From Patescibacteria group bacterium (lineage in GTDB: Bacteria; Patescibacteriota; Patescibacteriia; UBA1558; UBA10009): a DNA stretch of 64,000 nucleotides. Shown here piece after piece: positions 12,028-62,457 of the stretch (position 1 is the first letter of the stretch; every line of letters begins with the position of its first letter). The DNA is taken from contig JBAZSE010000001.1 in NCBI GenBank assembly GCA_041662565.1, positions 257,084 through 321,083 on the forward strand. The letters are read 5' to 3'. The notes under the pieces are model-generated. The model worked only from the letters and a program-made list of their open reading frames with translations. It had not been told where the DNA came from and did no database searches. A program made the position numbers and the translations under genes.

Positions 12028-12276
12028 ATGACAGAATACGCGGATATTAAATTAAAGAGACTTCGTAATTTTATTAAACATTTAAGCCATAGAACTAACA
12101 TAAAATTAGAAAGAGGCGGTGGCCATGTTGATAAAATTACCTATCCTCATTGGGCAAGGCCATTTCCATTACCCTCAAGGCACGGTACAGTCAATAAGCA
12201 TATTGTTAAGGATTTGTTGGAAAAGTTAATTAACGATGAAATTACCAATCAAGAGGAAATAGATAAAAAATTATAA
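12028..12276 (+). CDS. HicA-like mRNA interferase toxin
   Basis: 82 aa with G-H...YPHWARPFPLPSRHG...HIVKDLLEKL, matching the HicA/YcfA core (GSH...P.H...l....i...l). Confidence 0.5.
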   Translation: MTEYADIKLKRLRNFIKHLSHRTNIKLERGGGHVDKITYPHWARPFPLPSRHGTVNKHIVKDLLEKLINDEITNQEEIDKKL

Positions 12277-12282
12277 ACAAAA

Positions 12283-12310
12283 AACAACGGTTTTAAGCCG
12301 TTGTTTTTGA
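12283..12310 (+). terminator. rho-independent terminator (aacggttttaagccgtt plus T-run)
   Basis: Hairpin followed by TTTTT, immediately after the HicA-like stop. Confidence 0.55.
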
Positions 12311-12829: not shown

Positions 12830-13858
12830 ATGACTCAACCGGTATTTTCTATCCAGTGGCATATTACTACACGTTGCCAGCAACGTTGCCGTCATTGCTA
12901 TCTTTTTACTTCTCCGGAAGCACAAAAGGAAATATCTGGAGAGAAAAGTGTCACTTTCGACAAGTTAAAACTGATCGCTGACAACTTAGTTTTTTCTTGT
13001 CAAAAGCTAGGCGCTAAACCAAAAACATCAATCACCGGAGGTGATCCAATCCTCCACCCATATTTTTGGGAGCTGCTAGCTTACCTCGAAAAGTTGGGTA
13101 TTAAAGTCAGCATTCTTGGTAATCCATTCAAAATTACCAATAAGGTCGCTGAAAAATTAACTCACCTGGGAGTTAGTAAATACCAAATGTCTTTAGATGG
13201 GCTTCCTGAAACTCATGATCGACTGAGGAAGCCGGGATCATTCGATCGGACAATTCGTGCCAGTAAGATTCTAAAGAAACATGGGATAAAAGTCGGCATC
13301 ATGACTACAGTTTCAAAGTTGAACGCCTCAGAGATACCCTCTTTGATTGAATTAGTAGCTAAAGAAGGAATAAATAGCTACTCATTCGCGCGCTATTGTC
13401 CGACTCACAACGATCTTGGTTATATGTTCAGCCCGCAAGAATACCGCAGTTTTTTAGCTTCGGTTTGGGAAACTTATACTAAGAATGTTGACAGAGGAAC
13501 TAAATTCACATTGAAAGATCATCTTTGGCTTTTATTCCTCAAGGAGGAAGGCCTATTCAGGCCAGAGCCTACTAATGGGATTATTATCAGCGGTTGCGGT
13601 CTTGGCATATCACACTTATCGGTTTTGGCTGATGGTACGGTTTATGCCTGCCGCAGATTTCATAGTCCCGTTGGCCAAGTTCCTGAGCAAAGTTTTTACG
13701 AGATTTTCACCGGAGTTCAAATGAATGAATTTCGGGATTATTCTCGCTTGGAAAAATGCAAGGATTGCGAATTGCTTTGTTACTGCCGTGGCTGTATGGC
13801 AGTCGCCTATGGCTTTACCAATCACTGGACTGCGCCAGATCCACAATGCTGGAAATAA
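12830..13858 (+). CDS. radical SAM enzyme with C-terminal SPASM domain (peptide-modifying maturase-like)
   Basis: N-terminal CQQRCRHC (CxxxCxxC), plus a C-terminal Cys cluster CRRF...CKDCELLCYCRGC typical of SPASM/twitch auxiliary Fe-S domains. Confidence 0.85.
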   Translation: MTQPVFSIQWHITTRCQQRCRHCYLFTSPEAQKEISGEKSVTFDKLKLIADNLVFSCQKLGAKPKTSITGGDPILHPYFWELLAYLEKLGIKVSILGNPFKITNKVAEKLTHLGVSKYQMSLDGLPETHDRLRKPGSFDRTIRASKILKKHGIKVGIMTTVSKLNASEIPSLIELVAKEGINSYSFARYCPTHNDLGYMFSPQEYRSFLASVWETYTKNVDRGTKFTLKDHLWLLFLKEEGLFRPEPTNGIIISGCGLGISHLSVLADGTVYACRRFHSPVGQVPEQSFYEIFTGVQMNEFRDYSRLEKCKDCELLCYCRGCMAVAYGFTNHWTAPDPQCWK

Positions 13859-15661: not shown

Positions 15662-18037
15662 ATGAAAAACATTCTTTGGTTTAATGAACTAAATATTTCC
15701 GATATTCCCAAGGTGGGTGGAAAAAACGCTTCTTTGGGCGAAATGTATCAAAAATTAACGAAAAAAGGGATTAAAGTGCCTAATGGTTTTGCCATCAGTT
15801 CCGGCGCTTATTATACCTTTCTTAAATTAACGGGAATTGATAAGGAAATTAAAAAAATTCTCACAGGTTTGGATACCGGCAATATGAAGGATTTAGCCAA
15901 AAGAGGCGCGCTTGTTAGGGAGGTGATTTTAAATGCCGAATTTCCTAACGAACTTAAAACCGATATTGATTCTGCTTACAAAAAATTATGCACGTTTGCT
16001 AAAAGGCAAAATGTTGATGTGGCTGTCCGCTCCAGCGCTACGGCCGAGGATTTGCCCGATGCTTCTTTTGCCGGCCAACAGGAATCTTATTTAAATATCA
16101 AGGGCGAGCATTCGTTATTGGAAGCGGTTAAGCAATGCATGGCCTCGTTATTTACCGATCGAGCCATTAGCTATCGAGTGGATAAAAAATACGATCATTT
16201 TAAAATTGGCCTTTCGGTCGGGGTGCAAATTATGGTGCGATCGGATTTAGCTTGTTCGGGCGTAATGTTTTCCATTCATACGGAAACAGGTTTTAAAAAC
16301 GCCGTCATTATCAATGCCTCTTACGGTTTGGGCGAATATATTGTTAAAGGCACAGTTACGCCGGATGAATATTTGGTTTTTAAGCCAACTTTAAAGCAGG
16401 GCTTTAAATCCATTATCGGAAAAGAATTGGGCAGTAAAAAACATAAACTAATTTACGCTTCCGGCGGAACAAAACCAACTCAAGATGTGGAAGTTTCGGC
16501 AAGCGATCAAAATAAATACGCGCTTAATGATGCCGAAATTTTGCAGTTGGCCAAATGGGGTTGTTTAATTGAAGATCATTACAAAAAACCCATGGATATG
16601 GAATGGGCCAAAGATGGCCATAGCAAACAATTATTTATCGTCCAGGCCAGGCCCGAAACGGTTGAATCGCGCGTTAATCCCAATGTGATTGAAGAATATA
16701 TTTTGGAAGAAAAAGGCAAAATAATCGTGGAAGGCGCTGCTGTTGGTAAAAAAATCGGGCAGGGCAAGGTGCGGGTAATTCCGGATGTTTCGCAGCTGCA
16801 TGTTTTTAAAGAAGGGGAGATTTTGGTTGCCGAAATGACTGATCCGGATTGGGAGCCGATAATGAAAAAGGCCAAAGGCATTATTACCGATTCCGGTGGC
16901 CGAACTTGCCACGCAGCCATAGTTTCCCGCGAGCTTGGTATTCCTTGCGTGGTGGGCACAGGTAAAGCCACCGAGCTCTTGCGCACCGGCCAAGAAGTTA
17001 CTTTAAGCGGAGTGGAGGGCGAAGTTGGCCGGGTTTATAACGGGCTGTTAAAATATAAAATAAAAAAAACCAATATTAAAAATCTTAAGCGTCCTAAACG
17101 CGTTAAGGTGATGATGAATGTGGGCAATCCCGAAGCGGCATTTGCCGAAAGTTTTATTCCCAATGACGGCGTTGGCTTGGCCCGTGAAGAATTTATTATT
17201 TCCAATTTTATTAAAATTCATCCCTTGGCTTTAATTAATTACAAAAAGATCAAGGATTTGGCTGTTAAAAATCAGATTGATGAGCTAACGGCAGCTTATG
17301 ATAACAAAGTCCAATTTTACATTGATAAGCTGGCTTACGGCATTGGCAGGATTGCCGGCGCGTTTTGGCCCAAGGATGTTATTGTTCGCTTATCCGATTT
17401 TAAAACCAATGAATACGCCGGTTTAATCGGCGGTAAAATGTACGAACCTTTGGAAGATAATCCGATGATCGGCTGGCGCGGGGCTTCTAGATATTACGAT
17501 CCCAAATACATTGAAGGTTTTAAGTTGGAATGCCTGGCGTTTAAAAAAGCCCGTGAAGAAATGGGTTTAACTAATATTAAAATCATGGTGCCGTTTTGCC
17601 GAACTATTGAAGAGGGTGAAAAGGTCTTAAAAATTATGGCGCAACATGGCTTAAAGCGGGGGGTTAAAGGTTTGGAAGTTTACGTGATGTGCGAAATTCC
17701 TTCCAATGTTATTTTAGGCAAAGAATTTTGTAAAATCTTTGACGGTTTTTCGATTGGCTCCAATGATTTAACTCAGCTCACGCTGGGCGTGGATAGGGAT
17801 TCGCAGTTGGTGGCTCATGTGTATAACGAAAAAAACGAGGCCGTTAAAATATTAATCAGGCAGATTATCAAAACAGCTCATCAGTATAAGCGCAAGGTGG
17901 GTATTTGCGGACAGGCACCATCGGATTTTCCAGATTTTGCCCAATTTTTGGTTAGAGAAGGTATAGATTCCATTTCCTTAATTCCGGATACGGTAATTTC
18001 CACTACGGTAAAAATCGCCCAAGCAGAGAAGAAATAG
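15662..18037 (+). CDS. ppsA: phosphoenolpyruvate synthase (pyruvate, water dikinase)
   Basis: 791 aa with an ATP-grasp N-domain, the phosphohistidine region GGRTCHAAIVSRELGIPCVVG, and a PEP-utilising C-domain. Confidence 0.92.
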   Translation: MKNILWFNELNISDIPKVGGKNASLGEMYQKLTKKGIKVPNGFAISSGAYYTFLKLTGIDKEIKKILTGLDTGNMKDLAKRGALVREVILNAEFPNELKTDIDSAYKKLCTFAKRQNVDVAVRSSATAEDLPDASFAGQQESYLNIKGEHSLLEAVKQCMASLFTDRAISYRVDKKYDHFKIGLSVGVQIMVRSDLACSGVMFSIHTETGFKNAVIINASYGLGEYIVKGTVTPDEYLVFKPTLKQGFKSIIGKELGSKKHKLIYASGGTKPTQDVEVSASDQNKYALNDAEILQLAKWGCLIEDHYKKPMDMEWAKDGHSKQLFIVQARPETVESRVNPNVIEEYILEEKGKIIVEGAAVGKKIGQGKVRVIPDVSQLHVFKEGEILVAEMTDPDWEPIMKKAKGIITDSGGRTCHAAIVSRELGIPCVVGTGKATELLRTGQEVTLSGVEGEVGRVYNGLLKYKIKKTNIKNLKRPKRVKVMMNVGNPEAAFAESFIPNDGVGLAREEFIISNFIKIHPLALINYKKIKDLAVKNQIDELTAAYDNKVQFYIDKLAYGIGRIAGAFWPKDVIVRLSDFKTNEYAGLIGGKMYEPLEDNPMIGWRGASRYYDPKYIEGFKLECLAFKKAREEMGLTNIKIMVPFCRTIEEGEKVLKIMAQHGLKRGVKGLEVYVMCEIPSNVILGKEFCKIFDGFSIGSNDLTQLTLGVDRDSQLVAHVYNEKNEAVKILIRQIIKTAHQYKRKVGICGQAPSDFPDFAQFLVREGIDSISLIPDTVISTTVKIAQAEKK

Positions 18038-18046
18038 ATCAGGGGC

Positions 18047-18114
18047 GGTTATCAACTTGACCATTTTTGAAACTTAAGATAAGTTAATAAACAGCGTCAT
18101 GGTGACGCTGTTTT
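18047..18114 (+). repeat. copy 1 of a ~67-bp direct repeat module (TTGACC...TAAGTT promoter-like region plus 21-bp palindrome ACAGCGTCATGGTGACGCTGT plus T-run)
   Basis: Nearly identical to 18496-18562. Each copy precedes a small ORF with a conserved aatggagat RBS context. Confidence 0.6.
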
Positions 18115-18158
18115 TGTTCCTCACCGGTTCATCAACCCGGTAAACAAATGGAGATCTC

Positions 18159-18431
18159 ATGAAAATGAGAGCAGAGCGACAGCGGAAAAAGAAAGACGAA
18201 GAAGATCTTCTTTCTTTGCTACCCCCTGGTATGAAGGGGTTGGGTTCGTCGGGCACGTTGGTCCAAAAAACAGTCAAGGCCTATTTTGTGGGCATTGGCA
18301 CTCGTGACGTGCCTGATATATTCGTTATTGACAAAGAAACGGTGAGATTACCCGGAGGGGTGATTACGGGTAATCGTAATGATAAGAAGATGATTGATGG
18401 CTGTATTATGAACTCATCGCCAAGTGGTTAG
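18159..18431 (+). CDS. hypothetical small protein (GC-rich, Lys/Glu-rich N-terminus)
   Basis: 90-aa ORF downstream of repeat copy 1. GC about 47%. Confidence 0.3.
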   Translation: MKMRAERQRKKKDEEDLLSLLPPGMKGLGSSGTLVQKTVKAYFVGIGTRDVPDIFVIDKETVRLPGGVITGNRNDKKMIDGCIMNSSPSG

Positions 18432-18495
18432 CGGCTGTTACTCTCATTGATTTTTTGGCCCGTTGGAGCATCTGCTCACGGGTCTTTTTTTTGAC

Positions 18496-18562
18496 GGTTA
18501 TCAACTTGACCATTTTTAAAACTTAAGATAAGTTAATAAACAGCGTTAAGGTAACGCTGTTT
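18496..18562 (+). repeat. copy 2 of the ~67-bp direct repeat module (palindrome variant ACAGCGTTAAGGTAACGCTGT)
   Basis: The palindromic symmetry is kept despite substitutions relative to copy 1, which suggests a conserved structure or site. Confidence 0.6.
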
Positions 18563-18605
18563 ATTTGAACACATTCACACACAGGTCTAACAATGGAGAT
18601 GCATC

Positions 18606-18800
18606 ATGCATCATCAGGGAAAGGTCGAGCAGAATGGAACATTAAAAGTTAATGTTCCTGGACATGGGGACGTTGAAGTTTCCAAGGATTATTTGACCGA
18701 AGGTGGTCGTACAGTTCAGGTGCCCGAAAGACTTTTGTCAGAAGGAGGAAAGGGCTATAGAAATGTACCTTATGTGGCGCCACCGAGGCATAAGCGATAA
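18606..18800 (+). CDS. hypothetical small protein (Gly-rich)
   Basis: 64-aa ORF downstream of repeat copy 2. Confidence 0.3.
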   Translation: MHHQGKVEQNGTLKVNVPGHGDVEVSKDYLTEGGRTVQVPERLLSEGGKGYRNVPYVAPPRHKR

Positions 18801-18935
18801 ATTGCTCGCACCGCTTCTCTGATTTTATCAGCCCGTCTCTCTATTAATTCATTGCCATAAAGCTTTGATTAAGAGTTGCGCGGGCTCTTTTTTTTAAACA
18901 AAAAAGAGACAGTTAATCTCTTTTTAAAATCAATG

Positions 18936-18975
18936 GCGTGACGCTTAGCGTCACAATCGTCACGCTAAGTGTGGC
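18936..18975. promoter_or_regulatory. cluster of overlapping palindromes sharing the TGACGCT/AGCGTCA half-site (gtgacgcttagcgtcac...gtcacgctaag)
   Basis: Same half-site as in the 67-bp repeat palindromes. Confidence 0.35.
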
Positions 18976-19140
18976 GGTGTATCATGGTTTGGTACATCGA
19001 AAGTAAGGACATTATAAGGGTTTTTTAGCTTTCTATTCAGGTGGCCTTAGAGGCACTTGGGTCAGGGGAACTAATTAGTGAAATGAAAAAACATTAAGAA
19101 TAGTTCTTTGTAAAAAATAATAAATAATTATACAATAAAA

Positions 19141-19193
19141 AATGCTCTACACTAGGTTATAGTTCCTAAGAACTAACCTGTGTAGAGCATTGG
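19141..19193 (-). terminator. long hairpin terminator (about 22-bp stem) for the minus-strand T9SS-CTD gene
   Basis: aatgctctacac...gtgtagagcatt inverted repeat, followed on the minus strand by TTTTTT. Confidence 0.6.
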
Positions 19194-19199
19194 TTGTGT

Positions 19200-20621
19200 T
19201 CACTTAATCAGCGTCACCTTTTGCATGATTGTTGTAGATGACGACGATTGAAGCTGCAAGAAGTAAAATCCAGAGGGCAAATTTTGCCCGTTAATAGTGA
19301 TGTGAAAGTCCCCAGTGGCCGGACCGTTAAACAGTTTGTTCACTTCTCGTCCATAAGGATCAACGAGTAATAAACTCACTTGCTCAAAACCAGGCGGCAC
19401 TGCGTAATGAATGATTGCCGAAGAGTTGAATGGGTTAGGAAATACCTGTAATAGCGTTCCAACTGGAATCAACGGCATAACCTGGGTTGAAAGCTGATCA
19501 ATACCTGTTTTAACAAGCCACATGTTAGCCGAATATAGATCTGTTGGTCCTTTTGAACCGGCTAAGGTATAACTGCCATCAGGATTTTCTATCAAACTGC
19601 GGCACTCTTCATATTCTTCGGTACCATATGTTTTAGACCAAAGAATATTGCCTCTTGAACCAGTTCGTATTAGCCAGAAGTCTTTATTATTAGCACCAAA
19701 AGATGTCGTGTTTCCGGCTAAAACAAATCCGCCGTCAGGCATTTCAATAATGGAATTGCAGTCATTGTTGCCATTATTTTCATAAAGGCATGATAATAAA
19801 CTGTCGCCGTTTTCATTAATCAGCAACAGCCAAGCATCCCAATTATCCGGATTATGAGAATAGGCAGACCCAACTAAAGCAATTCTGCCATCAGTTGTAA
19901 GAATAGCAGATTCGCAAAAATTATGGCCGCCAATTTCGTAAGTACGGGACCAGATTGAATCGCCATCGGCGTTGATTTTGATCGCCCAGCAATCGCTTCC
20001 ATAGTTCCCGGCTAAAACGAATCCGCCGTCAGGCATTTCAATAATGGAATTACACTTGTCAGACCATAATCCGCCATACGTACGGGACCAGATTGAATCG
20101 CCATCGGCGTTGATTTTGATTATCCACCAATCTATGTCGCCAGCGCCAAAAGACATTGTACTGCCGATTAACATAAAACCGTCATCAGCAGTTTGAATAA
20201 TCGATCGGCAATACTCATGGCTTGCCCCGCCATAAAAGCGGGAATAGATGACGTCACCATCGGAATTGATTTTAGTAAATTTAAAATCTAAACCGAAGAC
20301 GTCAGGCTTCATTGCATCGCCAGCAAAGGCGAATCCGCCATGACATTGGATAAGAGAATTACAGTCTGCAATGAATCCTTCATAAGCGCGTGACCAAACA
20401 GAATCACCACGCTCATTTGTGCGAATTAGCCAAGGACATTCTCCTTGCCCAAAAGATGCAGTAACGCCTCCTAACAAGTATCCCTCGTCAGATCGCAGAG
20501 CAGTCCGACATTGTTCAGTGTGATTTCCGTATTGGTGGCTCCAAACGGTATCAGGTTGCGCCAAACAAGTACTGACAAAAATAGCCAATACAAGCGCGTA
20601 AAGTGAGATCTTTCTAAACAT
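19200..20621 (-). CDS. secreted repeat (beta-propeller-like, GDSIWSRTYGG repeats) protein with T9SS/Por-type C-terminal sorting domain
   Basis: Signal peptide, then at least 6 repeats of about 45 aa with the G-D-S-I/V-W-S-R/K-T/A-Y-G-G core. The C-terminal ~80 aa (VFPNPFNSSAIIHY...GFYFLQLQ...) matches the Por secretion tail pattern. GC about 44%. Confidence 0.6.
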   Translation of the reverse strand: MFRKISLYALVLAIFVSTCLAQPDTVWSHQYGNHTEQCRTALRSDEGYLLGGVTASFGQGECPWLIRTNERGDSVWSRAYEGFIADCNSLIQCHGGFAFAGDAMKPDVFGLDFKFTKINSDGDVIYSRFYGGASHEYCRSIIQTADDGFMLIGSTMSFGAGDIDWWIIKINADGDSIWSRTYGGLWSDKCNSIIEMPDGGFVLAGNYGSDCWAIKINADGDSIWSRTYEIGGHNFCESAILTTDGRIALVGSAYSHNPDNWDAWLLLINENGDSLLSCLYENNGNNDCNSIIEMPDGGFVLAGNTTSFGANNKDFWLIRTGSRGNILWSKTYGTEEYEECRSLIENPDGSYTLAGSKGPTDLYSANMWLVKTGIDQLSTQVMPLIPVGTLLQVFPNPFNSSAIIHYAVPPGFEQVSLLLVDPYGREVNKLFNGPATGDFHITINGQNLPSGFYFLQLQSSSSTTIMQKVTLIK

Positions 20622-20773: not shown

Positions 20774-20863
20774 TGGCGGAGAGGCAGGGATTTGAACCCT
20801 GGAAGGCTTTTACACCTTACTTGCTTTCCAAGCAAGCGCACTAGACCACTATGCGACCTCTCC
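20774..20863 (-). tRNA. tRNA-Ser (anticodon GGA), long variable arm
   Basis: Hand-folded: acceptor GGAGAGG/CCTCTCC, anticodon loop TTGGAAA, long variable arm, T-loop TTCAAAT, encoded CCA. Confidence 0.85.
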
Positions 20864-26462: not shown

Positions 26463-27010
26463 GAACACGGTCTTTGCTATAATCAGTTTATGGCTAAAGA
26501 CAAAAGAACCTATCGTGATCGCGCTGAATATCTTAAAAAAGCTGTTGATAAAAGGCGTAAGAGTTTACGTTTAATGGCTGTAAGATATAAAGGCGGCAAG
26601 TGTCAACTTTGCGGATACAAAAAGTGCATTCAAGCATTAGATTTTCATCATTTAGATCCTAAAAAGAAAGATTTTGGAATTTCAGAATCCGGAACAACAA
26701 GATCTTGGATGAAAATTAAAACGGAATTGGATAAATGTCTAATGATTTGTGCTAATTGTCATCGTGAAGTTCATCATGGTAAAACGCAGCTTTTTGCCGT
26801 AAGGCAGATTGAAAAATGAGGTGAACTCGGGGAAGCCTGAAATGGTAATCCCGAGCCAAGCCCTGATCTTGCTTAAGCAAGCGTCGGGGAAGGTGTAGAG
26901 ACTATCCTTAACAGGAGTACCTTGTAATGATTACAAGGGAAGCGCCTCATCTCCTAAAAGTTTTAGGAGAATGATATAGTCCACCCTTTAGAGAAATCTA
27001 GAGACAAGTG
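26463..27010 (+). mobile_element. group I self-splicing intron (~548 nt) carrying an HNH homing-endonuclease ORF
   Basis: The 5-prime exon ends in U and the intron ends in G, as group I splicing requires. R-like (GUAGAGACUAUCC) and S-like (GAUAUAGUCC) elements sit at 26895-26906 and 26973-26982. There is also a CGGGGAAGG P-like element. Confidence 0.55.
26490..26819 (+). CDS. HNH homing endonuclease (intron-encoded)
   Basis: CQLCG...LDFHHLDPKKKD...CANCHREVHHG: the classic HNH His-Asn-His/zinc-finger arrangement. Confidence 0.8.
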   Translation: MAKDKRTYRDRAEYLKKAVDKRRKSLRLMAVRYKGGKCQLCGYKKCIQALDFHHLDPKKKDFGISESGTTRSWMKIKTELDKCLMICANCHREVHHGKTQLFAVRQIEK

Positions 27011-27045
27011 TAACCAATTGGTCGTGGGTTCGAATCCCTCCTCCC

Positions 27046-27115
27046 GAGCCATTAAAAAACCACCAAAGAAATTTGATGGTTTTTTATTATTCCAAGATTA
27101 ACGATATTGAGGGAT
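27046..27115 (+). repeat. 70-bp direct repeat R, copy A (contains a terminator-like hairpin aaccaccaaa/tttgatggtt plus T-run)
   Basis: About 94% identical to 30092-30161. It begins at the GAGCCA 3-prime end of the tRNA. Confidence 0.6.
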
Positions 27116-62094: not shown

Positions 62095-62376
62095 ATGGCC
62101 AAAATGACCAAGTCACAAATGCTCCAAAGTTTGGCTGACAGCACCCAAATGTCCAAAAAGGACCTGTCAACAGTTTTGGAAGCATTAACCTCCTTAGTTT
62201 ATAAGGAAGTTAAAACAAATGGCGAATGCACCATTCCGGGCATTGGCAAGTTAGTCAAAAAGCATCGCAGTGCCAGACAGGGCCGCAATCCTGCCACCGG
62301 CGCAACTATTCAGATTCCTGCCAAAACCGTGGTTAAGTTCAGGGTTTCCAAGGCAGCCAAGGACGCCATTTTGTAA
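62095..62376 (+). CDS. hup: DNA-binding protein HU
   Basis: MTKSQMLQSLA...GIGKL...RQGRNPATG: the HU/IHF fold signature. Terminator at 62391-62424. Confidence 0.9.
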   Translation: MAKMTKSQMLQSLADSTQMSKKDLSTVLEALTSLVYKEVKTNGECTIPGIGKLVKKHRSARQGRNPATGATIQIPAKTVVKFRVSKAAKDAIL

Positions 62377-62457
62377 TTTCGTCCAACTTTTTAAAAAACG
62401 GCGCTTGCTAAGCGCCGTTTTTTTGTTATACTGATAGTTGTAATTATCCGAACCATT

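Follow-up and report, generated by a model that had tools for sequence, protein, structure and literature searches.

Promoter and terminator-like hairpin combined in a duplicated 68-nt cassette downstream of ppsA in a Patescibacteria genome

Introduction

Several described systems place a hairpin close to the start or the end of a bacterial transcript. Intrinsic terminators of the bidirectional type consist of an A-tract, a stem and a U-tract. In leader attenuators such as those of Bacillus subtilis pyrG and Escherichia coli pyrC, a terminator or hairpin lies near +1 and its formation depends on how transcription starts. Stabilising stem-loops are found at the 5′ end of mRNAs, as in the E. coli ompA and papA leaders and in B. 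subtilis; 5′-terminal base pairing protects bacterial mRNAs, and B. subtilis RppH requires at least two unpaired 5′ nucleotides (PMC3997798). Putative mobile promoters have been defined as sequences of at least 50 nt that share at least 80% identity and lie upstream of non-homologous genes within one genome (Nijveen, Matus-Garcia and van Passel 2012, PMC3575422), and coupling between promoters and terminators in bacteria is the subject of a preprint (bioRxiv 10.64898/2026.08.19.745784). Here we describe a locus that touches on each of these, in a 64-kb stretch (the window) of an 809-kb contig from a Komeilibacteria-like metagenome-assembled genome of an uncultured member of the Patescibacteria. 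Downstream of ppsA, the gene for phosphoenolpyruvate synthase, a 68-nt cassette comprising a predicted promoter and a hairpin occurs twice, each copy ahead of a small open reading frame (ORF). We propose, with a rough probability of 0.55, that the hairpin is a + strand RNA structure of the terminator type that ends ppsA, that the following small gene has its promoter squeezed in just upstream of this hairpin, and that the cassette was recently duplicated before an unrelated ORF.

Results

A 68-nt repeat of promoter and hairpin

The direct repeat occupies positions 18046–18113 and 18495–18562, with 64 of 68 nucleotides identical (94%). An earlier sequence-only reading of this region had reported two near-identical units, and the repeat is real, though the coordinates given for it were one position off. 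The same reading had described TTGACC and TAAGTT 17 nt apart, followed by a palindrome, and both copies do have this form: TTGACC, a 17-nt spacer, TAAGTT, AAT, the hairpin and a T-run. In cassette copy 1 (18046–18113, + strand), the −35 hexamer TTGACC lies at 18057–18062, the −10 hexamer TAAGTT at 18080–18085 and the hairpin AAACAGCGTCA-TGG-TGACGCTGTTT at 18089–18113, followed by TTGTT, with the U-run reaching 18118. In cassette copy 2 (18495–18565, + strand), the hexamers lie at 18506–18511 and 18529–18534, and the hairpin AATAAACAGCGTTA-AGG-TAACGCTGTTTATT (18535–18565), with a stem of 14 bp, is followed by the interrupted U-run TTTATTT. The repeat begins 9 nt past the ppsA stop codon, and the first −35 hexamer lies 20 nt past it.

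The 11 nt upstream of the −35 hexamer and the discriminator are identical between the copies, and so is the spacer bar one base; between species, none of the three is recognisably conserved. Of the four differences, one is this spacer base, another lies in the loop, and the remaining two form a paired change in the stem, C18098/G18104 in copy 1 to T18547/A18553 in copy 2. This replacement of C:G by T:A is the compensatory change that had been said to keep the symmetry, and it indicates selection on pairing. Predicted fold energies are −14.8 kcal/mol for copy 1 and −15.4 kcal/mol for copy 2.

The full 21-nt palindrome pattern and both halves of the promoter part are each confined to these two sites in the 64 kb, against a chance expectation of 0.00–0.05, and a search for the palindrome motif alone, as the sequence-only reading had suggested, gave no site in the window beyond the two modules. 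A scan of 185,579 reference genomes with the palindrome (AACAGCGTNANNNTNACGCTGTT) returned 92 stretches, none with the promoter part; these comprised unrelated coding sequences, generic terminators or foreign operators. In the JGI metagenomes and IMG/VR, collections that do not hold the source genome, the promoter-plus-palindrome pattern gave 2 and 5 chance matches, respectively, the viral ones falling within coding sequence. Palindromes of other kinds were encountered along the way. In Nocardia spp. (L016, L043, L058, L064, L070 and L071), conserved palindromes of about 29 bp (ggtAACAGCGTTAGNNTAACGCTGTTacc) lie beside gene starts, and in Lachnospiraceae (L025 and L090) the arrangement TTGACT-N10-AACAGCGTTATAATAACGCTGTT turned up in the genome-wide pattern scan. 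These are probably genuine operators unrelated to the present locus.

Orthologous hairpins in related genomes

The neighbourhood of ppsA was compared across eleven related contigs, in which ppsA is 79–85% identical to that of the window and synteny is conserved; the closest ppsA homologues carry the label Komeilibacteria. Orthologous hairpins are present in three of these contigs, L103, L110 and L111, at the same distance from the −10 hexamer as in the window. They read TTGACT-17-TAGTAT-ATAAAAA-GCAGCGTCA-ATCA-TGATGCTGTTTTT in L103, TTGACA-17-TATTAT-AAAAAA-GCGTT-CAAT-GACGC-TTTTT in L110 and TTGACA-17-TAAACT-AAGCATC-AGCATC-TAAACTG-GATGCT-TTTTT in L111.

Aligning these three with copies 1 and 2 gives five sequences and 11 stem pairs, with standard pairing in 92.7% of cells and changes on both sides in 4 of the 11 pairs. 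When the 3′ partners are slid by 1–3 columns, pairing falls to 31–63%. Four cells hold G.U or U.G wobbles, which on the opposite strand would be C.A mismatches, and one stem position forms the series G:C (window and L110), G.U (L103) and A:U (L111). The loop measures 3, 3, 4, 4 and 7 nt across the five copies, so the distance between the arms is not fixed. By inspection, the 17-nt promoter spacers of the relatives have no evident similarity to those of the window. Taken together, the symmetric double changes, the strand-specific wobbles and the variable spacing favour a hairpin formed in + strand RNA (or in single-stranded nucleic acid) over an operator with fixed spacing. One further relative (L106/L112) carries a hairpin of unrelated sequence with a T-run at the same place, behind TTGACA-17-TATTAT and before a gene of a small-protein family that we call family X; it is structure that recurs there rather than sequence.

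Terminator form and position

A covariance model built from the five hairpin copies (R1) recovers those copies together with ordinary terminators just past stop codons, both in the window and in the relatives. Examples in the window are 62393–62423, after the ORF at 62095–62376 (−18.3 kcal/mol), and 12279–12309, after the ORF at 12028–12276 (−14.5 kcal/mol). These terminators and the cassette hairpins have in common the succession of A-run, GC stem and T-run, and their energies are similar. Copy 1, with an 11-bp stem containing five GC pairs and followed by TTTTTGTT, is classed as terminator-like by the scan tool. Its hairpin lies 52 nt past the ppsA stop codon. The interval from ppsA to ORF1 holds no second terminator candidate, and in L103 and L111 the interval from ppsA to the gene that follows holds none either; by form and position, therefore, copy 1 is the ppsA terminator. 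A T-run stands behind every hairpin (T5, T3AT3, T5, T5, T6 and T4). In L111 it is present although no matching A-run precedes the inner stem, which argues for a terminator and not merely an extended palindrome. Together, these features favour the view that the palindrome is an RNA hairpin of the intrinsic-terminator type and not a protein operator.

Promoter overlap and a proposed mechanism

The arrangement claimed for each unit, a promoter with a structure behind it at the predicted +1, is supported. The stem core has its first G or C 6–8 nt past the −10 hexamer in all of the five to six cases, and RNA polymerase normally starts at that distance. The energy of the hairpin drops stepwise as the assumed start is moved into the stem: with predicted starts at the seventh or eighth nucleotide, copy 1 retains −11.4 or −8.9 kcal/mol and copy 2 −9.1 or −6.6 kcal/mol.

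On this basis, we propose that the hairpin of copy 1 ends ppsA transcription. A sigma-70-type promoter serving the small gene that follows would be squeezed in between this terminator and the stop codon of ppsA, with its predicted +1 at the base of the GC core. RNA reading through from ppsA would include the A-tract arm and could form the full stem at about −15 kcal/mol, like the other terminators of this genome; RNA started at the promoter would lack the A-tract and form a weaker hairpin, flush with its 5′ end. The element may thus insulate the small gene from ppsA read-through and constitutively throttle the output of its own promoter, less efficiently than it stops ppsA read-through, and the surviving small-gene mRNA would keep a base-paired 5′ end. 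All statements here on where the RNA starts, on termination itself and on mRNA stability are inferred. A regulated leader attenuator was also considered and rejected: no antiterminator or sensor was found, promoter-derived RNA would have nothing upstream of the stem and the leader folds into independent hairpins only. Nor did any Rfam leader, riboswitch or other known RNA family match near the gathering score.

Duplication of the cassette

Outside the 68 nt and the words around the ribosome-binding site (RBS), the two units cannot be aligned, and a tandem duplication of whole gene units was rejected, these two portions being all that the units have in common. Set beside spacers that have diverged between species, the 94% identity points to a recent copy within the genome and not to constraint on every base. 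The 68-nt promoter-plus-hairpin cassette would thus have been copied recently, to a position before a second, unrelated orphan ORF. The T:A pair is the derived state in copy 2, since C:G or U.G stands at this position in the other four copies, so pairing has been kept even with the own terminator of ORF1 directly upstream. With 94% identity over 68 nt and downstream ORFs that are not paralogous, the copies fall within the definition of putative mobile promoters; relative to the respective start codons, they lie at −113 to −46 and −111 to −44. An integron attC array or a MITE (miniature inverted-repeat transposable element) was rejected as an explanation: on reading, the 68 nt hold no core sites, no integrase lies nearby, there are only two copies, both at this locus, and scans of the collections gave no match.

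The two small ORFs

About 45 nt past each copy there is, as had been noticed, a conserved RBS context (AATGGAGAT), followed by ORFs of 90 and 64 amino acids. ORF1 (18159–18431, + strand) is preceded by GGAG at 18151–18154 and ORF2 (18606–18800, + strand) by GGAG at 18595–18598, in both cases 4–7 nt upstream of the ATG. Each ORF has its own strong terminator. That of ORF1 (18457–18492, + strand) has its stem at 18457–18484, followed by T8 (−16.9 kcal/mol); the terminator region after ORF2 (18864–18929, + strand) has two hairpins with T/A runs. The GC content of the ORFs had been put at about 47–50%. They do lie above the long genes of the window (40.7 ± 2.4%), at measured values of only 45.6% and 46.4%.

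Both proteins are orphans. In a search of 5.8e9 proteins, each matched only itself, and an exhaustive HMMER search, run for ORF1 only, gave nothing but spurious repeat proteins. Neither has a match in Pfam, NCBIfam, PHROGs or PADLOC, or in tblastn against phages, and BLASTP produces no alignment between the two. The possibility that they are diverged members of family X was rejected, hhalign giving a probability below 1% and tblastn being empty in every frame. The small proteins had earlier been said to have no recognisable fold. The AlphaFold 2 (AF2) models are of low confidence, the predicted local distance difference test (pLDDT) being 41 for ORF1 and 60 for ORF2, the latter with a small beta sheet; Foldseek against the PDB found nothing, the best E value being 0.95, for ORF2. 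By codon usage, the annotated frame is the best of six for both ORFs (0.05 and 0.01, against −0.18 to −0.66 for the others). Measured against fragments of real genes, the scores fall near the 5th percentile, slightly lower for ORF2, which is what genes that are young or poorly adapted would be expected to show. A phage- or island-derived origin, which the sequence-only reading had considered, receives no support: PHROGs, phage records, plasmids and PADLOC gave no match, no DNA similarity to phages or plasmids was found at the locus, and the ORFs lie instead in a conserved chromosomal slot.

The slot downstream of ppsA

The ppsA gene itself (15662–18037, + strand) encodes a protein of 791 amino acids with the Pfam domains PPDK_N, PEP-utilizers and PEP-utilizers_C, and its 3′ flank is the site of the cassette. 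The order conserved in the relatives is DnaB ... SIMPL, ppsA, variable small genes, ..., DnaG and sigma-70. In most relatives, a consensus −35 hexamer (TTGACA/T) starts close to the ppsA stop codon, no more than a few bases away, with a −10-like hexamer 16–17 nt further on; behind this promoter lie small genes without family assignment. Family X occupies the slot in four genomes (L102, L103, L106/L112 and L110), its members being 29–60% identical, and several unrelated orphans are found there as well (L104, L105, L106 and L111). Among the genomes that bear the hairpin, four different protein families or orphans fill the slot. Across related genomes, this locus serves as a conserved chromosomal slot in which small orphan genes lie. 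One could go further and regard the stretch after ppsA in this Komeilibacteria-like clade as a fixed landing pad, with a conserved promoter and a +1 hairpin, behind which unrelated orphans are replaced or newly born, the hairpin throttling them to a safe, low expression and the cassette copying itself locally through rearrangements at the palindrome; we consider this extension unlikely.

Other elements were seen in the same interval. Between ppsA and the promoter that follows it, L102 (8420–8545), L110 (5395–5535) and L109 (4712–4810) have insertions of GC-rich hairpin elements, about 100–130 nt long and built as AAAAAGGCCTTGCCC...GGGCAAGGCCTTTTT. These have the look of inserted structured repeats that also serve as terminators. 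In L105 (6376–6440), the stem of the ppsA terminator (CAGGAAG ... CTTCCTG, then T7) carries the −35 hexamer TTGACA of the next gene inside its loop, which is another form of promoter/terminator overlap within the clade.

The third palindrome cluster and nearby fragments

A third palindrome cluster (18936–18975) is followed by two further hairpins; the whole spans 18936–19033 (+ strand) and is absent from the relatives. In the cluster, GTGACGCT-T-AGCGTCAC (18938–18954) overlaps a longer and mutually exclusive hairpin, ACGCTTAGCGT/ACGCTAAGTGT. The region 18930–19035 folds into three consecutive hairpins, at −38.8 kcal/mol on the + strand (z −5.0) as against −20.4 kcal/mol on the − strand, and is possibly a small structured RNA. 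It has no Rfam match and no clear promoter, and was not found in the relatives. The cluster had been described as built on the TGACGCT half-site of the cassettes. The sequence is real, and the 8-mer GTGACGCT is common to it and copy 1; its arms, however, are everted relative to those of the modules, and the shared half-site may carry no meaning. TGACGCT occurs 8 times in the window (3.6 expected), five of these within 18093–19216. Two origins for the cluster were rejected. As a degenerate copy of the module, it gives gapped local alignment scores within the shuffle range, with only the 8-mer alignable; as a duplication of a tRNA 3′ end (an att site), it has only TGGCG in common with tRNA-Ser (20774–20863).

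A partial inverted copy of the hairpin, comprising its right arm and 14 nt downstream, lies at 19195–19220 on the − strand and is identical to 18548–18573 of copy 2 at 22 of 26 positions; none of 200 shuffles reached 22, the maximum being 20. It overlaps the last seven codons and the stop codon of a Por_Secre_tail gene of 473 amino acids, a gene that none of the relatives examined carries in this slot. That these hairpin-derived fragments within 1.2 kb are relics of local rearrangements at the palindrome is speculation.

Further observations in the window

About 4 kb upstream of the cassettes lies a radical S-adenosylmethionine (rSAM)/SPASM gene (about 12830–13858; L001 4672–5700), preceded by ORFs of 115 and 82 amino acids. 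Between DnaB and SIMPL, a P-type ATPase is found in several relatives; in the window, this slot is taken up by the rSAM gene along with other small genes. The rSAM region is a possible cluster of the kind that makes ribosomally synthesised and post-translationally modified peptides (RiPP-like), unrelated to the cassette. Downstream, a group I intron (Rfam RF00028, 71.6 bits) matches at 26723–27003, within a region (26490–27052, + strand) that encodes an ORF of 109 amino acids with an HNH-like motif (CANCHREVHHG). The 3′ half of a tRNA (GGTCGTGGGTTCGAATCCCTCCTCCCGAGCCA), missed by ARAGORN, lies directly 3′ of the intron, which appears to sit inside a tRNA gene.

Discussion

Several points weigh against the interpretation proposed here. 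A strong terminator already lies upstream of the hairpins of copy 2, L110 and L106, so ending the upstream gene is not the whole function of the element. Placed right at +1, and with no antiterminator possible, a terminator would cause most transcripts to be wasted. The −10 hexamer TAAGTT is a weak match and the promoter is absent from the consensus scan list; the +1 position is a prediction from hexamer spacing; and a hairpin at +1 was rejected as a general trait of promoters in this genome, since it accompanies 2 of the 19 consensus promoters in the window. Five stem pairs are invariant despite the diverged spacers, which could reflect sequence-specific recognition by a protein. In the shuffle control, 16 of 500 trials reach the observed pairing values, a figure that is indicative only and not a probability, the five sequences being related. 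The copy counts, finally, cover 64 kb of the 809-kb contig.

The sequence-only reading had left two options for the palindrome, an operator for a dimeric regulator or an intrinsic attenuator at +1, and of these it is the attenuator or terminator option that fits the data. As an operator, the palindrome would be recognised as duplex DNA by a dimeric repressor blocking RNA polymerase at +1, with a regulon made up of the small genes and perhaps the third cluster. Such a role would account for the perfect dyad symmetry over the predicted start and for a core (AGCGT/ACGCT) conserved across relatives, unlike the spacers; the 7–8-mer (G)TGACGCT does recur in the third cluster and at 19210, and bacteria that are unrelated, Lachnospiraceae and Nocardia among them, have similar palindromes overlapping promoters. 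A dimer, however, calls for a constant half-site spacing, and the arms shift by 1–4 nt between orthologues; symmetric double changes and wobbles that make sense on one strand only would be meaningless for duplex recognition; the half-sites of the third cluster are everted, not inverted; and in L106 this position is taken by a hairpin whose sequence is unrelated. No gene for a helix-turn-helix regulator lies within ±10 kb, and the 64 kb searched of the 809-kb contig hold no further sites. We regard an operator as distinctly unlikely. Somewhat easier to entertain, though still unlikely, is a hairpin that serves only as a 5′-terminal stem-loop stabilising the small-gene mRNAs against 5′-end-dependent decay, without significant termination. 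The GC core begins 6–8 nt past the −10 hexamer, so that the predicted RNA 5′ end would be paired with 0–2 free nucleotides, and copy 2, L110 and L106 have retained the hairpin despite the upstream terminator. A stabiliser, on the other hand, has no need of the T-run that stands behind all hairpins, including that of L111 with no A-run, and the shape equals that of the genome's terminators. We know of no mRNA decay data for this phylum.

Two further explanations would deprive the hairpin or the ORFs of a role. Copy 2 might be a recent neutral duplication in which the block of promoter and ppsA terminator was copied and the hairpin is a functionless passenger, in keeping with 94% identity beside spacers that have no evident similarity between species, with the strong terminator of ORF1 just upstream, and with the nearby hairpin-derived fragments (the third cluster and 19195–19220), which suggest local rearrangements at the palindrome. 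Two of the four substitutions, however, fall at paired positions and restore pairing, for which a rough estimate of chance is about 1%; the paired change is derived in copy 2, and the stem of copy 2 is longer still, at 14 bp. We regard a passenger as improbable. That the units are genes for small non-coding RNAs, with untranslated ORFs, we hold to be very improbable: although the ORFs have no homologues, low AF2 confidence and codon scores that do not exceed the 5th percentile of fragments from real genes, GGAG stands 4–7 nt before each ATG, the annotated frame clearly outscores the other five, the slot in the relatives holds conserved small protein genes (family X), and there is no Rfam match.

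If the terminator-type hairpin with its wedged promoter is accepted, the locus offers a small comparative case in which promoter and terminator lie so close that the RNA of the next gene should begin at the terminator stem, and in which a promoter cassette has been reused for an unrelated orphan gene. If the predicted start site is true, it would illustrate how very small genomes may insulate neighbouring genes and set a low expression of young genes without a regulator. To our knowledge, the transcription signals of Patescibacteria are almost unstudied. The locus opens no new field; it is a fairly ordinary case of promoter reuse combined with promoter/terminator overlap, and its parts, namely intrinsic terminators, promoter reuse and 5′ stem-loops, are known. 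Less usual are the order of promoter then terminator with the predicted +1 at the stem base, its occurrence in four lineages, the duplication, and the turnover of orphans behind it.

Compared with described systems, the cassette hairpins resemble intrinsic terminators in their GC-rich stem of 8–11 bp, short loop, U-run and position past a stop codon. They differ in that a consensus-like promoter stands between stop codon and hairpin, so that transcripts of the next gene must start at the terminator and pass through it, and in that the second copy lies behind another terminator. With the pyrG and pyrC type of leader the locus shares a hairpin near +1, but here no reiterative-transcription tract, alternative antiterminator or sensor is visible. 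The likeness to 5′ stem-loop stabilisers lies in a hairpin predicted to be flush with the 5′ end; here, by contrast, a U-run follows the hairpin and the start is only predicted. Unlike putative mobile promoters in general, the two copies are adjacent (449 nt apart) and not dispersed, no mobile element is involved and the copied unit includes the terminator hairpin. Coupling of promoter and terminator appears likewise to be of a known kind, judging from the preprint on this subject: there, as here, the initiation and termination signals of adjacent genes share a short stretch of DNA. The present case is in Patescibacteria and is duplicated.

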